64,000 nt of DNA from NCBI GenBank assembly GCA_030654015.1, contig JAURYI010000118.1, forward strand, positions 1,496 through 65,495, written 5' to 3'. The translations under genes and the position numbers were made by a program. Shown here one piece after another: positions 51,692 through 58,899 of the stretch (the stretch's first letter is position 1; each line of letters opens with the position of its first letter). The notes beneath the pieces are model-generated. The model did no database searches. It saw nothing but the letters and a program-made list of their open reading frames with translations, and was not told where the DNA came from. This DNA comes from Methylococcales bacterium. Its GTDB lineage: Bacteria > Pseudomonadota > Gammaproteobacteria > Methylococcales > Methylomonadaceae.

Positions 51692-52501
51692 ATGAATATT
51701 TTTTATACCTTTTCTGGCTTTGCTGTCGGCTTATTAGTCGGTGTCACAGGCGTGGGCGGTGGCTCATTAATGACTCCGTTGCTGGTTTTTTTATTCAATT
51801 TTAATCCAGCGGTTGCGGTAGGCACGGATTTATTGTTTGCTGCCATTACCAAAACTGGCGGTGTATGGGTGCATCACGGTAAACATGGATCTGTTGATTG
51901 GAAAATTGTCGGCTGGTTGGCATTGGGTAGTTTACCGTTTGCGATAGGTACTTTATTTGTACTCCAATATTTAAACTCGGTGGGCAAGGAAACCACGGGA
52001 GCAATTACTTTTTCGTTAGGCATCGCTTTAATCCTCACTTCTTGCGCATTGTTTGTGCGTAGCGCGTTATTACATAACGCGGAAAAATTAGGGCAAATTG
52101 ATGATGAGCATAGCAATCTGGAAAATGCAGCGCGGTTCAAACATCTGGAAATTCCTGCAACTGTGCTGATTGGCGCGGTGCTGGGGGTACTGGTTACGCT
52201 GTCTTCAGTCGGTGCTGGCGCGTTGGGTACAGTAGCATTGTTATTTTTATACCCAAGAATGACCACGCTGAAAATTGTCGGTACCGATTTGGCTCATGCG
52301 ATTCCGCTGACCGCCGTTGCAGGCATCGGGCATTGGACGCTGGGCAATGTGAATTTTGTATTATTGGGCAGTTTGTTAATCGGCTCATTACCCGGTATCT
52401 GGATTGGCAGCCACTTAAGCGCGAAAATCCCAGAAAAAATATTACGCCCTGTATTGGCAACCGTGTTATTGCTGATTGGTTTGAAGTTTGTCCTGCACTA
52501 A
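51692..52501 (+). CDS. TauE/SafE-family anion (sulfite/organosulfonate) exporter
   Basis: 269 aa; GVGGGSLMTPLLVF and duplicated 4-TM halves typical of TauE/SafE. Confidence 0.8.
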   Translation: MNIFYTFSGFAVGLLVGVTGVGGGSLMTPLLVFLFNFNPAVAVGTDLLFAAITKTGGVWVHHGKHGSVDWKIVGWLALGSLPFAIGTLFVLQYLNSVGKETTGAITFSLGIALILTSCALFVRSALLHNAEKLGQIDDEHSNLENAARFKHLEIPATVLIGAVLGVLVTLSSVGAGALGTVALLFLYPRMTTLKIVGTDLAHAIPLTAVAGIGHWTLGNVNFVLLGSLLIGSLPGIWIGSHLSAKIPEKILRPVLATVLLLIGLKFVLH

Positions 52502-52509
52502 GCCGCTGC

Positions 52510-53946
52510 ATGAGTCGCTCGCAACAGCAGAGTTTTTTTCGTGAGTCGCCCGATAGTCGCCTGTTAACGCGCGGGGCGTATTCGCCGTCCCCGTTATATT
52601 TTCTTACCCAACCGATACCGACCGCCTCAGGCAATAAATGGCTGGTGTCGCATAGCCTTCGAGAACTCGGTTCTTACGTCAATTATCGCCCCAGCCCCGA
52701 AGGTATCCGCGATTTTCTGTGTTACGGATTTGTCCCCGCGCCGCGTACTATTTTTCAGGGCGTGTCTGCCGTGCCGCCTGAGATGCAGTGCCGCCTGCCG
52801 TTTGCTGACAATCAAATCGTCTGGAGTCGTACTGATAGAAGCCCCAGACCGCCGCTACACCAGCCAGAACAGGCATTTTGGCAACACCTCTTTGCACATA
52901 CCCGCTTAGACCACGCCGCCGTATTGCTGTCAGGCGGGCTGGACAGCGCAATGGTCGCCGCCGCCGCACACGCCGCAGGTACAAAAATTACCGCGTATCA
53001 TGCGCGGTTCAGCGGTGTTGATGTGGGCGAAGGTTCGGATACGCACGCCGCACGCATGACTGCCCAACACCTAGGCATAGAACAGCGTGAAATAGTGGTG
53101 AATTCTTTCGATGCCCTGCGCTGGTTCGGTAAAGTGATGGGCGCGTTGGATCAACCGCTGGGCGACCCTGTCTTGCTGCCGTTTTATCTGTTGTTTAAAG
53201 CCATTCATCAACACCAACCCCAGCACACGGTACTCACAGGCGAAGGCGGCGATCAGTTATTCGGTTCGTGGGCGATGAAACCGATGATGATGCGCGAGTT
53301 ATACCCAGAAGCAGGCTATAACCAATCGGCAGGCTATCTTGCCAGTTTTCATAAGTTCAGTGATGAATGGGATAGATTAATTTCCGCTAAATTAGGACAG
53401 CAACTCGATAACTCGGTTGAACTGGAAAGCCCGATTGCTCAGGCTTTTGCATCCTCACCATTACCCGATTTTTGTAATCAATTACGCTGGGTCGATTTAC
53501 AATTAAAGGGACTGCAACATATCGTGCCTAGAATAAACGCTATGGCAACCGCCCACCAACTCAACACACACCATCCATTTTTTGCGGCGGATATGATTGA
53601 GTTGGGCATGGAGTTACCCAATGAATTAAAAATGTCAGGGGCGCGGGATAAAGTATTGCTGAAAATGCTGGCGCATTCCTATTTGCCTGAACCAGTGGTA
53701 GAACGGCGCAAACAAGGCATGGGCGTACCGACCAGCCTGTGGTTTCAACGCGGTTTAATGCCCTTGGCGGCGTATTGGTTGAATAAAAACAGACTGATTA
53801 CGTCAGGCTTATTGAATGCGGACACGGTTCAAGAGATAAGACAAAAAAACCTGACCACCAGCGACGGACGCGGTAGACGCTGGGGGGACAGGTTATGGAT
53901 GTTATGTGCGTTAGAATGTTGGTTTGCCAGTCTTAACCAGTCTTAA
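52510..53946 (+). CDS. Asparagine-synthetase-like PP-loop ATP pyrophosphatase, synthetase domain only (no glutaminase domain)
   Basis: In-frame ATG at 52510 of track ORF 52333..53946; the upstream part overlaps the tauE-like gene. Motifs: AVLLSGGLDSAMVAA, LTGEGGDQLFGSW, HHPFFAADMIEL, ERRKQGMGVPTSLWF. Only ~60 residues precede the linker segment YGFVPAPRTIFQGV. Confidence 0.8.
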   Translation: MSRSQQQSFFRESPDSRLLTRGAYSPSPLYFLTQPIPTASGNKWLVSHSLRELGSYVNYRPSPEGIRDFLCYGFVPAPRTIFQGVSAVPPEMQCRLPFADNQIVWSRTDRSPRPPLHQPEQAFWQHLFAHTRLDHAAVLLSGGLDSAMVAAAAHAAGTKITAYHARFSGVDVGEGSDTHAARMTAQHLGIEQREIVVNSFDALRWFGKVMGALDQPLGDPVLLPFYLLFKAIHQHQPQHTVLTGEGGDQLFGSWAMKPMMMRELYPEAGYNQSAGYLASFHKFSDEWDRLISAKLGQQLDNSVELESPIAQAFASSPLPDFCNQLRWVDLQLKGLQHIVPRINAMATAHQLNTHHPFFAADMIELGMELPNELKMSGARDKVLLKMLAHSYLPEPVVERRKQGMGVPTSLWFQRGLMPLAAYWLNKNRLITSGLLNADTVQEIRQKNLTTSDGRGRRWGDRLWMLCALECWFASLNQS

Positions 53947-53968
53947 ATTAACGTTGCGAGGTGAAACA

Positions 53969-57785: not shown

Positions 57786-57788
57786 ATA

Positions 57789-58349
57789 ATGAAACGACTC
57801 ACGGTATTGTTTGTTTTTTTGCTGTTGGCAAGCCCTGTTATTTTCGCCAAATCTTTTTTTGGCTGTGATGAGCATAAGGGTAAAGAAACCCCAGTTACGG
57901 GTGTAGTGGCTGAAAAAATGACCGCCACCATAAAAAAACTGCCCGACTTAGGTGCGCAAATCAAGCAGGTGGTCTTGATTGACGGTATACGCGCAATGGA
58001 TGATGAAATTGCCAGTGCAGGAGAAATAAAAATTCTGGTCGATTTAGATTGGCAAGCCTTAGCCAAGCACCCAGAACAACGCAAAGCCTTGGATGACACG
58101 GCGGCGGCTATTATTACCGCTGTTTTTGCTGACTATAACGACATCACTAAAATGCGCGTCATTATCAAAACACCCACGAATGGCAAGTATGCAAGTGCGG
58201 CAAAAGTATTCTCTTTTACCCGCCCGACGTGGGAACTGACGAAAAACAACCCGCGTTATCATTTGGATACTCCCACTGGCGCGACGAATCTATTGGCATT
58301 GGGCGATTACGTCGTGCTGACTGATAAAGGTTGGGTACGCGGTTATTAG
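57789..58349 (+). CDS. Secreted hypothetical protein
   Basis: 186 aa; signal peptide MKRLTVLFVFLLLASPVIFA; starts 3 nt after the AsnB-like 2 stop. Confidence 0.6.
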   Translation: MKRLTVLFVFLLLASPVIFAKSFFGCDEHKGKETPVTGVVAEKMTATIKKLPDLGAQIKQVVLIDGIRAMDDEIASAGEIKILVDLDWQALAKHPEQRKALDDTAAAIITAVFADYNDITKMRVIIKTPTNGKYASAAKVFSFTRPTWELTKNNPRYHLDTPTGATNLLALGDYVVLTDKGWVRGY

Positions 58350-58368
58350 CGCATTCATAACAATATCT

Positions 58369-58899
58369 ATGCGTAATCTATTGCTACTCATAACTACATT
58401 TTTTTTATTAACGGCTTGTTACAATCCGCCTTCAACGGAAGAATTAGTCACAAAGTATTCCACTGCCACTGATGAGTTTGAAATGCTCAAAAAAATGATT
58501 ATTGAGGATACGGGGCAAAAAGAGTGTTTAGATGTTGGTTTTGACCATATTGGAGAATATTGGAAGTACGATGAAAAATGGACACATAGCAATGATTACA
58601 AAAATGAATTATCGATAACTGATGTTTTAAAAACAGTCGGATTAACTAAGGAACGATACGAAGAATATAAAAAGTTATTTGTGTTAACGCACTCTGAACG
58701 AGTTACTTTTTGTCACCGTAAAGCCCACATAGTAACTGTATTAGTTTATAGAGATGGTTTAAGTATTAGTGGTTGCAGTGGTGATATTCAATGGAATAAT
58801 GAAGTTCCGCCCGTTTCAGTTGGAAAACGCGGTAAAGGCGATTTTACAGAAATTACGCCGTTGAATAACGGATGGTACTTAAATTTCAACTGTACTTAA
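58369..58899 (+). CDS. Hypothetical lipoprotein, AT-rich gene
   Basis: 176 aa; lipobox LLTAC. A sampled line gives ~30% G+C, well below neighbouring genes. Confidence 0.6.
   Translation: MRNLLLLITTFFLLTACYNPPSTEELVTKYSTATDEFEMLKKMIIEDTGQKECLDVGFDHIGEYWKYDEKWTHSNDYKNELSITDVLKTVGLTKERYEEYKKLFVLTHSERVTFCHRKAHIVTVLVYRDGLSISGCSGDIQWNNEVPPVSVGKRGKGDFTEITPLNNGWYLNFNCT

Follow-up and report, generated by a model that had tools for sequence, protein, structure and literature searches.

Asparagine-synthetase (AS)-like enzymes are known to adenylate the C-terminal carboxylate of gene-encoded peptides, which is then attacked by nitrogen. Examples include PesC, a nitrile synthetase that forms first the amide and then the nitrile, the amidases TsrC and ScdTA, and the hydrazide synthetase FzmA (PMC13060819, PMC13622209). 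PesC uses Gln, and FzmA accepts glutamylhydrazine or Gln, as nitrogen donor. Other AS-fold enzymes are independent of glutamine; lasso peptide cyclases, beta-lactam synthetase and the carbapenam synthetase CarA have a Cys-less or inactive N-terminal domain with an intact PP-loop. In bacterial defence, the QueC-like PP-loop ATP pyrophosphatases Cap9 (type IV CBASS) and QatC (QatABCD) are encoded next to a protein, CdnD or QatB, whose extended terminal tail enters their active site and is modified, the tail in those cases being the N-terminus with its Gly2 amine as nucleophile (PMC13376578). The amino-group carrier protein LysW is a soluble zinc-ribbon protein of about 54 aa with an acidic C-terminal tail ending -EDWGE. 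Its terminal carboxylate is amide-linked to a substrate by the adjacent ATP-grasp ligase LysX, and further enzymes then work on the tethered substrate. Finally, the XrtA/PEP-CTERM system, itself uncharacterised, pairs an AS-fold amidotransferase (TIGR03108) with a LysA-like PLP decarboxylase (exosortase-A-associated, TIGR03099).

The window analysed here is a 64,000-nucleotide stretch of a Methylococcales genome (assembly GCA_030654015.1, contig JAURYI010000118.1, positions 1,496 to 65,495). It carries a widespread, unnamed three-gene unit in which two AS-like enzymes, A and B, flank a predicted membrane-anchored protein, X, whose disordered C-terminal tail ends in a near-invariant aromatic-glycine. 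This suggests an undescribed way of chemically modifying or loading a protein's C-terminus. A first-pass annotation, made from the sequence alone, had described seven co-directional ORFs at 51692-58899, and all of its ORFs and junctions were confirmed on the forward strand: a TauE-like gene (51692-52501), A (52510-53946), X1 (53969-54955), X2 (55023-55985), B (55986-57785), and ORFs at 57789-58349 and 58369-58899, separated in turn by 8, 22, 67, 0, 3 and 19 nt. What that annotation observed is real, and its domain assignments hold.

Both AS-like proteins match Pfam Asn_synthase (1.1e-50 for A and 1.4e-64 for B), and neither has Cys at position 2. In A (478 aa) the PP-loop motif SGGLDS (aa 141-146) lies at 52930-52947, GEGGD at 53239-53253 and KQGMGVP at 53710-53730; the N-terminal glutaminase domain is truncated, with no GATase match in Pfam. 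In B (599 aa), whose start abuts the X2 stop (TAAATG), SGGLDS (aa 266-271) lies at 56781-56798, GEGGD at 57072-57086 and KSGMLVP at 57549-57569, and a degenerate, Cys-less GATase_7 domain is still recognisable (1.6e-7). Neither protein reaches any NCBIfam cut-off. The best PDB relatives of B are the hydroxyamidotransferase TsnB9 (7ylz) and beta-lactam synthetase, and CarA is also among the best PDB sequence hits, although E-values for the beta-lactam synthetase and CarA group are only 1e-9 to 1e-16. Both A and B keep the Glu of GEGGD, where beta-lactam synthetase has Tyr. The lasso cyclase model NF033535 scored 29 and 106 bits against a cut-off of 525, and there is no lasso B protein or leader peptide. 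The best NCBIfam similarities were to TIGR03108 and the NAGGN amidotransferase, but these too were far below cut-off (about 200-245 vs 817 bits for TIGR03108). The PP-loop was present in every complete related AS-like gene. One caveat applies to the description of these enzymes as glutaminase-less. In the main clade of the family the upstream enzyme starts M-S-[GA]-I-[CA]-G, with Ser replacing the canonical Cys2 in all 24 starts that match the motif plus the MSGIAG and VSAIAG variants, so that after Met removal an N-terminal Ser nucleophile cannot be excluded for the family.

X1 (328 aa) and X2 (320 aa) are 55% identical, and each contains a CxxC...CxxC (C4) zinc ribbon, two predicted membrane helices and a Topo VI-A-type Toprim-like domain; the first-pass annotation had proposed the ribbon, the two-helix membrane hairpin and a Toprim-like domain. 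In X1 the ribbon occupies aa 1-27 (53969-54049), the predicted TM hairpin about aa 74-118 (54188-54322), the Toprim-like domain about aa 165-305 (54461-54883) and a disordered tail aa 312-328 (54902-54952), ending -STGGYG. The AF2 model (pLDDT 83.6, pTM 0.79) shows two long helices at residues 58-97 and 100-127, which we read as a membrane hairpin; the tail has pLDDT 33-54. X1 passes the Pfam gathering score for the TOP6A/Spo11 Toprim model PF21180 (26.4 vs 24.1 bits), 19 of 45 diverse family members hit that model (best 5e-10), and the top PDB hits in a Foldseek search were Topo VI-A (probability 0.98-1.0, E 0.016-0.1). The Toprim Glu position is kept as D/E in 134 of 144 family representatives and the first Asp of DxD in 113 of 144. 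However, the second Asp is lost family-wide, being replaced by Ser or Thr, and the 5Y-CAP domain and catalytic Tyr are absent. New invariant residues appear (His226, His189, Cys194, Asn186 and Asp256), and the domain is fused to the Zn ribbon and TM hairpin.

The X family includes at least 1254 clusters at 50% identity, spanning Methylococcales, cyanobacteria, a Streptomyces plasmid and high-GC metagenomic contigs. In non-redundant related loci an AS-like gene lies directly upstream of X in 50 of 56 testable cases, with 5 more within 2 kb, and directly downstream in 49 of 51. The A stop overlaps the X start by 4 nt in 33 of 50. Orthologues of A lie upstream of X in all Methylococcales loci, and the unit was found in other contexts as different as a plasmid of the cyanobacterium Gloeothece PCC 7822 and contigs from varied metagenomes, including high-GC ones. 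No entry in Pfam, NCBIfam, PADLOC or the searchable literature describes the module. X homologues occurring mostly without AS-like neighbours, or a match to an already named system or BGC, had been set beforehand as grounds for rejecting an undescribed system; X homologues almost always have AS-like neighbours, and nothing matched in these resources.

The broader interpretation in the first-pass annotation is only partly supported. A conserved and undescribed gene set is upheld, but the proposal that an enzyme-X-X-enzyme mirror arose by duplication of a two-gene module is not. The ancestral and usual form is A-X-B with a single X. The two AS-like genes are old paralogues, only 28% identical, that fall into distinct upstream and downstream types across phyla. 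X1 is the ancestral-type X, whereas X2 is a lineage-specific second copy, found only in the window and in four related loci (L003, L017, L018 and L020 in our numbering of related loci; L003 is a contig of a close relative). X2 is closer to the single-copy X of other Methylococcales (66-67%) than to X1 (55%). It retains the ribbon, TM and Toprim-like core, but its tail is shortened and ends -VDAE instead of -GYG, as do those of its orthologues.

The first-pass annotation overlooked the conserved end of the X tail, which is the strongest clue to mechanism. Of 144 representatives at 50% identity, 119 end in [FY]G, and 68 of the 144 end in DSFG; one alignment showed an invariant C-terminal YG. The last 30 residues are 17% G, 14% D and 14% S, with a median net charge of -5, although sequence upstream of the last four residues is poorly conserved. 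A sister subfamily instead ends in an invariant Glu (-[SG]E) and sits in the order CBS protein, X, one divergent AS-like enzyme, so that tail type co-varies with enzyme set. A cupin gene at 58965-59726 (+, 253 aa; Pfam Cupin_2, 6.9e-9), which had been left outside the operon, also belongs to the unit. It has an HxH...H metal motif, three conserved Cys and a C-terminal HPDSD.GPT...HPM[VI]NRT signature, and is found next to the triad in otherwise unrelated neighbourhoods (L001, L013, L015, L042, L055, L066, L072 and L085). Other genes that accompany the unit variably, and that may have tailoring roles, encode a LysA-like decarboxylase (105 vs 478 bits to TIGR03099), which many relatives carry, Rieske/PhyH proteins, an HO-like di-iron enzyme and a radical SAM enzyme. 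Many loci, however, hold only the triad.

We consider the functional unit to be A, then X, then B, together with the dedicated cupin in this lineage. The gene order, the sequence motifs and the conserved acidic, Gly/Ser-rich tail end are observed, and the zinc ribbon, the two long helices and the Toprim-derived domain with a remodelled Cys/His/Asp site are observed or predicted. The placement of both ends of X in the cytoplasm, and any chemistry on the tail, are inferred. Tentatively, and with somewhat less than even confidence, we suggest that the tail is the substrate, or a carrier arm, of the two flanking PP-loop enzymes. One or both would adenylate a tail carboxylate with ATP, most likely the terminal Gly alpha-carboxylate and alternatively Asp side chains, and join it by an amide bond to a nitrogen nucleophile that does not come from Cys-dependent glutamine hydrolysis. 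Candidate nucleophiles are ammonia, an amine (many relatives encode a LysA-like PLP decarboxylase in the unit) or an intramolecular nitrogen. The cupin, the decarboxylase or other oxygenases would then tailor the tail or the attached group. If the modified tail stays on X it could regulate the Toprim-like domain or link X to a partner or lipid; if released, it would be a small product.

This reading rests on the cross-phylum linkage, the tail end and its co-variation with enzyme set, the variable tailoring genes, the motifs expected for adenylation in both window enzymes, the lack of Cys2 as in beta-lactam synthetase and lasso cyclases, which form amides without glutamine, and the precedents cited above, rather than on direct evidence of a covalent change. 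Compared with PesC, TsrC, ScdTA and FzmA, the putative substrate is a membrane protein of 320-440 aa rather than a peptide of 20-60 aa, there are two paralogous enzymes rather than one, there is no Cys nucleophile, and no RRE, protease or exporter recurs with the unit. The resemblance to LysW and LysX is one of analogy, with no sequence homology shown; X is six times larger than LysW and membrane-anchored, carries a Toprim-like domain and is paired with AS-fold enzymes. A mere substrate tail would not need a strongly conserved Toprim-like domain and Zn ribbon, so X must do something more. The reading also does not explain why two enzymes are needed, and the possibility of Ntn-type hydrolysis by Ser2 of enzyme A in the main clade leaves the nitrogen source uncertain. 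Many loci hold only the triad, with no tailoring, protease or export gene. At least one X with two AS-like neighbours lacks the motif (L015, ending -IGEEP), and X2 has lost it.

Several alternatives appear less likely. X may be a membrane adaptor or regulator that is not itself modified, docking the soluble enzymes at the inner face of the membrane through its tail, where they would amidate or amide-link a small molecule or a lipid-linked envelope precursor such as a peptidoglycan, exopolysaccharide or lipid head group, while the Zn ribbon and Toprim-like domain sense a ligand and gate the activity. Predicted membrane anchoring, the many triad-only loci, the below-cut-off similarities to TIGR03108, the NAGGN amidotransferase and TIGR03099, and the CBS partner of the sister subfamily, which suggests ligand regulation, fit this doubtful but possible view. 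Acidic tails with a hydrophobic tip, such as the SSB C-terminus, do serve as docking devices. However, a docking motif rarely needs an invariant last residue with a free carboxylate in two flavours (Gly or Glu), each matched to a different enzyme set. All scores to the named envelope families are far below their cut-offs. No envelope-biosynthesis, exosortase or EPS genes recur in the analysed loci, although one annotated PEP-CTERM-domain ORF lies about 1 kb upstream of the unit on the Gloeothece plasmid. A conflict or anti-phage role is unlikely. In this view X would be a membrane-tethered Toprim nuclease or membrane disruptor, primed or triggered by tail modification by analogy with Cap9-CdnD and QatC-QatB. 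Toprim domains are common in defence nucleases (OLD/Gabija, PARIS AriB, Wadjet JetD), the distribution is patchy across phyla, one copy is on a conjugative plasmid, and some loci lie beside CRISPR-cas, Fic or transposase genes. Against this, PADLOC gave no hit for X, or for the AS-like proteins beyond a generic PP-loop match, no relative was found in 2.9 million viral contigs, and defence genes are not among the recurrent neighbours. The loss of the second Toprim Asp and of the 5Y-CAP domain also weighs against it. In Methylococcales the unit sits at one stable position among conserved chromosomal neighbours (metF, moaA-like genes) while X diverges to 57% identity, which looks like vertical inheritance.

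A true RiPP-like pathway also seems unlikely. Here the tail would be a core peptide, cyclised or capped by the AS-like enzymes, cut off by a protease and exported as a small bioactive peptide, perhaps by TauE in this lineage, with the rest of X as an oversized leader or scaffold. AS-like enzymes are class-defining in lasso peptides and cap C-termini in other RiPPs (PMC13060819), oxygenase-type neighbours occur, and the TauE gene ends 8 nt before A in the window. However, no protease, RRE or exporter recurs with the unit, TauE is confined to one Methylococcales group, lasso-cyclase scores are far below cut-off, the tail upstream of its last four residues is poorly conserved, and no RiPP is known to use a 300-aa membrane protein as leader. 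Adjacency by chance or inherited synteny is effectively refuted by the comparative data. The whole metF to moaA neighbourhood is syntenic within Methylococcales, so that adjacency there proves little on its own, but the triad persists in dozens of unrelated neighbourhoods across phyla, with overlapping stop and start codons.

The remaining genes of the proposed operon accompany the unit only inside Methylococcales and are lineage-local neighbours. The TauE/SafE-family membrane transporter (Pfam TauE, 2e-50) is probably not core; tblastn found it upstream of A in only 14 related loci, all within the Methylococcales group, with no hit in L011, L027/L028 or any distant locus. The 186-aa protein at 57789-58349 has an N-terminal signal-like or TM segment and no family hit, and its orthologues occur only in Methylococcales loci. 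It is unusually divergent, being 66% identical to its L003 orthologue while the flanking genes are 92-98% identical, and is not homologous to the single-TM accessory protein of 156-214 aa found in other clades (hhalign probability 0.1). The putative lipoprotein at 58369-58899 (176 aa, no family hit) is present or absent between close relatives and is not part of the unit. It was found by tblastn only in L017 (96%) and is missing even from L003 (X1 99%, flanking genes 92-100% identical), where the 186-aa gene is followed directly by the cupin.

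The open reading frames of the region were confirmed at TauE 51692-52501, AS-like 1 (enzyme A) 52510-53946, X1 53969-54955, X2 55023-55985, AS-like 2 (enzyme B) 55986-57785, a 186-aa protein at 57789-58349 and a putative lipoprotein at 58369-58899. AS-like 1 has an ATG start 8 nt after the TauE stop, and AS-like 2 begins at a TAAATG junction with X2. The observation made in the first-pass annotation, of a run of genes with these boundaries containing two AsnB-like enzymes without an N-terminal Cys nucleophile, thus holds exactly. Its interpretation was only partly supported: the gene set is a conserved unit that none of the resources searched describes, but the proposed origin by mirrored duplication of a two-gene module was not supported.

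Pfam searches confirmed TauE (2e-50) and an Asn_synthase domain in both enzymes (1e-50 and 1e-64; 173.7 and 219.4 bits against a gathering score of 21), with a residual GATase_7 domain only in AS-like 2. Both enzymes carry SGGLDS, GEGGD and K.GM.VP. Neither has Cys at position 2, as AS-like 1 starts MSRSQQ and AS-like 2 starts MSRFQVYCG. Neither reaches the cut-off of any NCBIfam model, including those for asparagine synthase, NAGGN amidotransferase, PEP-CTERM amidotransferase and lasso cyclase. On the asparagine synthase equivalog model TIGR01536 (cut-off 267.1 bits) they score 117.1 and 187.8 bits, and distant members of the module score 164-250 bits. On the lasso cyclase model NF033535 (cut-off 525 bits) they score 29.1 and 106 bits. 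Their best solved relatives are the hydroxyamidotransferase TsnB9 and beta-lactam synthetase, at E 1e-9 to 4e-19. The best sub-threshold NCBIfam similarities of the AS-like enzymes generally, and of the accessory decarboxylase (7757-8986 in L100, a locus on a Gloeothece plasmid described below), are to a pair of models tied to the exosortase-A/PEP-CTERM system, TIGR03108 and TIGR03099. That pairing is also uncharacterised and may use related chemistry.

X1 and X2 are 55% identical. The AF2 model of X1 (pLDDT 83.6, pTM 0.79) has a small N-terminal ribbon holding the four Cys, two long helices (58-97 and 100-127) that we read as a membrane hairpin, an alpha/beta domain (about 165-305) and a disordered end (316-328, pLDDT below 50). 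Three results link the alpha/beta domain to the Toprim domain of Topo VI-A/Spo11. X1 passes the Pfam gathering score of PF21180 (26.4 bits against 24.1), 19 of 45 diverse family members hit that model (best 5e-10), and the first seven PDB hits from Foldseek are all Topo VI-A chains, with 9o0g, 2zbk and 1d3y at the top. A sequence search of the X profile against the PDB gave only marginal hits, to ErmC' (0.022), the RNA polymerase subunit P ribbon (0.26) and Topo VI-A (0.67). The metal site of the Toprim-like domain is remodelled. Among 144 family representatives the Toprim Glu position is D/E in 134, the first Asp of DxD is kept in 113 and is Asn in 24, and the second Asp is Ser or Thr in 135, so that the full acidic site is not present. 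His226, His189, Cys194, Asn186 and Asp256 are almost invariant, and a Cys/His site predicts Zn or Fe rather than Mg. Only profile positions 2-64 of the Toprim model match, and the region N-terminal to the match is the Zn ribbon plus TM helices; there is no 5Y-CAP (winged-helix) domain with a catalytic Tyr. X is therefore not a topoisomerase, but a Toprim-derived domain to which no activity can yet be ascribed.

The X family is large. A word-indexed search found 74 close relatives, and every one that a source assigns to an organism is from Methylococcales. An exhaustive profile search found 1254 clusters at 50% identity with E below 1e-3, of which 350 are below 1e-30. No Pfam or NCBIfam model is dedicated to the family, and where a source names a member the name is "hypothetical protein" or a spurious "RNA polymerase subunit RPC12/RpoP". 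A profile scan of reference genomes with a narrow Methylococcales alignment returned only 9 loci, so that the taxonomic breadth described here rests on metagenomes, one plasmid search and source names. No relative of X was found among the viral contigs searched.

In nine reference genomes of Methylococcales, including Crenothrix sp. D3, the conserved order is TauE, A, X, B, the 186-aa protein, cupin and a 94-aa protein, with a single X. That synteny alone proves little, but the same A-X-B triad appears in unrelated neighbourhoods. These include a distant relative with 31% identical X, arranged cupin-A-X-B beside Fic and transposases, an Oscillatoriaceae cyanobacterium, two other metagenomic contigs, the 80 closest metagenome loci, and the conjugative plasmid Cy782202 of Gloeothece verrucosa PCC 7822. 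Among non-redundant loci with enough flank, an AS-like gene is directly upstream of X in 50 of 56; in 5 more it lies within 2 kb, with a decarboxylase gene in between. An AS-like gene is directly downstream in 49 of 51. The A stop overlaps the X start by 4 nt in 33 of 50. The linkage is therefore real, and the possibility that X homologues would mostly lack AsnB-like neighbours, which had been set as a condition for rejecting the association, was not borne out.

The upstream and downstream enzymes are distinct types. HMMs built from each type score their own members about twice as high as members of the other type, and in the window the two enzymes are 28% identical. For this reason the mirror duplication proposed in the first-pass annotation is not supported. 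X2 is a lineage-specific extra copy found only in the window's close relatives, and is more similar to the single-copy X of other Methylococcales (66-67%) than to X1. Tandem extra copies of X have arisen independently in several lineages: in a cyanobacterium (locus L012, 6620-9290), where one copy is split into 75-aa and 320-aa ORFs; in L099 (8001-10329), a locus of the Glu-ending subfamily described below; in a Streptomyces linear plasmid (L101, 5432-8597), with apparently three divergent copies and one AS-like gene; and in the window (53969-55985). This may mean that X works as an oligomer.

A feature missed by the first-pass annotation is the C-terminal tail of X. All X1-type proteins end in -GYG after a run of small residues; ...AADNSGSTGGYG and ...SDGGADSFG are examples of tail peptides. 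Among the 144 family representatives, 119 end in [FY]G; of these, 68 end in DSFG, 13 in ESFG, 7 in DGFG and 7 in DTFG. The last 30 residues are rich in G, D and S, with a median net charge of -5. An internal DSF repeat in the tail looked general among the 80 closest metagenome loci, but is present in only 9 of 116 FG-ending representatives and was rejected as a feature of the family. A sister subfamily (loci L016, L097, L098 and L099) ends instead in an invariant Glu (-[SG]E), and its members sit in a different unit, consisting of a stand-alone CBS-pair protein, X, and one divergent AS-like enzyme of 614-624 aa. In L016 and L097 this unit is preceded by a Rieske oxygenase, and in L016 also by PhyH. 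X2 of the window and its orthologues also end in Glu (-VDAE). The last residue, with its free carboxylate, is thus conserved on a flexible tail, and the kind of tail co-varies with the AS-like enzyme set.

Accessory genes vary between loci. A dedicated cupin with HxH...H, three conserved Cys and a C-terminal HPM[VI]NRT signature occurs in about 20 of the loci and lies at 58965-59726 in the window; a PDB search with this protein returned nothing below E 0.6. A LysA-like PLP decarboxylase was found in 13 loci and scores 245 bits on TIGR01048, below the 298-bit cut-off. A 156-214 aa single-TM protein was found in 8 loci. We considered whether the 186-aa protein of the window is the counterpart of this single-TM protein, but hhalign gave a probability of 0.1 and the identification was rejected. 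In single loci an HO-like di-iron enzyme occurs with a radical SAM enzyme, or Rieske with PhyH. TauE accompanies the unit only in one Methylococcales group. Between AS-like B and the cupin lies a small variable patch (window 57789-58899; 10343-10940 in L003, a contig of a close relative; 11821-12944 in L017, a further locus). Here the 186-aa protein is only 66% identical between the window and L003, while the flanking genes are 92-100% identical, and the lipoprotein gene (58369-58899) is present in the window and L017 (96%) but absent from L003. Conversely, the 94-aa protein (59760-60044), which has no family hit, is 96-100% identical across Methylococcales loci whose X proteins are only 63-69% identical. 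It is by far the most conserved gene of the neighbourhood, but it is absent from distant loci and is probably unrelated to the module. A promoter and terminator scan of 50900-60300 found fewer promoter-like sites than in shuffled sequences and no convincing internal terminator, and was uninformative.

The plasmid locus of Gloeothece verrucosa PCC 7822 (L100; NC_014534.1, 319329-326147) carries a complete unit in the order 207-aa single-TM protein WP_013335016, AS B family WP_041934270, decarboxylase WP_013335014, X WP_013335013 (annotated only as "hypothetical protein") and, on the opposite strand, AS-related WP_013335012. The unit is small, at three to four genes, has an obvious mass-spectrometric read-out and occurs here in a cultured, sequenced strain, which makes its function directly testable.

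What the sequences and models show or predict is a membrane-anchored protein, inferred to face the cytoplasm, that bears a conserved C-terminal carboxylate motif, and two adjacent, apparently translationally coupled PP-loop enzymes with intact adenylation motifs and no Cys nucleophile. That these enzymes adenylate a carboxylate of the tail, and then form an amide with a non-glutamine nitrogen, is our inference from sequence and gene order alone, as is any modification of X itself. Precedent exists on both sides. AS-like enzymes act on the C-terminal carboxylate of gene-encoded peptides: PesC makes an amide and then a nitrile, TsrC and ScdTA make an amide, and FzmA makes a hydrazide (PMC13060819, PMC13622209). 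The PP-loop enzymes Cap9 and QatC take a partner protein's tail into their active site (PMC13376578). We favor this reading over the alternatives, but hold it only tentatively, at somewhat less than even likelihood; it leaves unexplained the need for two enzymes, the role of the Toprim-like domain, and whether the product stays on X or is released. The nitrogen source is also subject to a caveat. In the main clade the upstream enzyme begins M-S-[GA]-I-[CA]-G, which is the canonical MCGICG with Ser for Cys, and an N-terminal Ser nucleophile after Met removal cannot be excluded there, although the window's enzyme A lacks that part altogether.

The module was also compared with individual systems. 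Unlike the RiPP enzymes of the PesC, TsrC and FzmA type, which work with a short precursor peptide and a recognition element, the enzymes here adjoin an X of 320-440 aa with TM helices, and no PqqD/RRE Pfam hit appeared in the AS-like proteins. The adjacent leader peptidase (B protein), RRE and short precursor of lasso peptide loci were likewise not found: Pfam matches for the called genes of 13 loci show no RRE or peptidase next to the triad, and clustering of neighbors across 73 loci found no such recurrent family, ORFs under 70 aa being outside these searches. The LysW carrier protein, which has a Zn ribbon plus an acidic tail and whose terminal Glu is amide-linked to a substrate by an adjacent ligase, is a conceptual analogue. 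X has a Zn ribbon and a conserved tail but is 6-8 times larger, and its neighbors are AS-fold enzymes, with no recurrent ATP-grasp family corresponding to LysX/ArgX. Similarity of the AS-like enzymes to QueC, the family of Cap9 and QatC, is limited to the PP-loop (18-23 bits), and X starts MKC, inside the Zn ribbon, rather than with a conserved Gly2 tail. PADLOC-DB v2 gave no hit for X, only a weak, generic QueC PP-loop hit (5.6e-5) for AS-like 1 and a TPR hit at 0.003 for the lipoprotein.

Of the other explanations, the one that competes most closely, though we think it unlikely, is that X is a non-covalent membrane adaptor or regulator for enzymes acting on a small or lipid-linked substrate; a docking motif would rarely need an invariant terminal residue matched to the enzyme set. 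A defence module with X as Toprim effector appears less likely again, given the absence of a PADLOC hit to X, of viral relatives and of recurrent defence neighbors, and the stable chromosomal position of the unit in Methylococcales. Similarly improbable is a true RiPP pathway with a released tail, for which no protease, RRE or exporter recurs, while chance adjacency is very unlikely because the triad persists across unrelated neighborhoods. A bolder possibility, which the data do not rule out but which remains doubtful, is that the module is an independent invention of protein C-terminus activation. In this view AS-fold enzymes would play the role that E1 enzymes play for ubiquitin-like proteins, or that LysX plays for LysW, adenylating the terminal Gly (or Glu) of a membrane-tethered Toprim-like protein and then either building a tethered metabolite on this carrier arm or conjugating X to an amine on a lipid or protein at the membrane.

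Nothing in Pfam, NCBIfam, PADLOC or the PDB describes X or the triad, and full-text literature searches on asparagine synthetase or synthase in connection with Toprim, zinc ribbons, defence, scaffolds or C-terminal carboxylates found no description of the module. A recent network analysis of AS-like enzymes selected candidates by co-occurrence with known RiPP elements (PMC13060819) and would probably have missed this unit. An AS-fold enzyme acting on the terminus of an adjacent gene product is an established theme, to which we tentatively assign the module; the putative substrate class, the enzyme pair and the X family are new. If the tail of X is indeed the substrate, AS-type C-terminal chemistry, so far known only for a handful of short peptides, would be extended to a full-size membrane protein, and a function would be given to a family of over a thousand sequence clusters. 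New enzymes that derivatise protein C-termini are also sought as biocatalysts.

Elsewhere in the window, GC content drops to 0.35 at 8001-10000, against 0.42-0.50 in the rest, with a strong positive GC skew, and this segment may be a foreign insert. By eye, the 95-aa ORF at the window's end (63680-63967, minus strand) resembles a HigB-type toxin, and the 327-aa ORF at 60153-61136 (minus strand), which overlaps the downstream 394-aa ORF by 4 nt, contains a J-domain-like "LHPDRE" motif.
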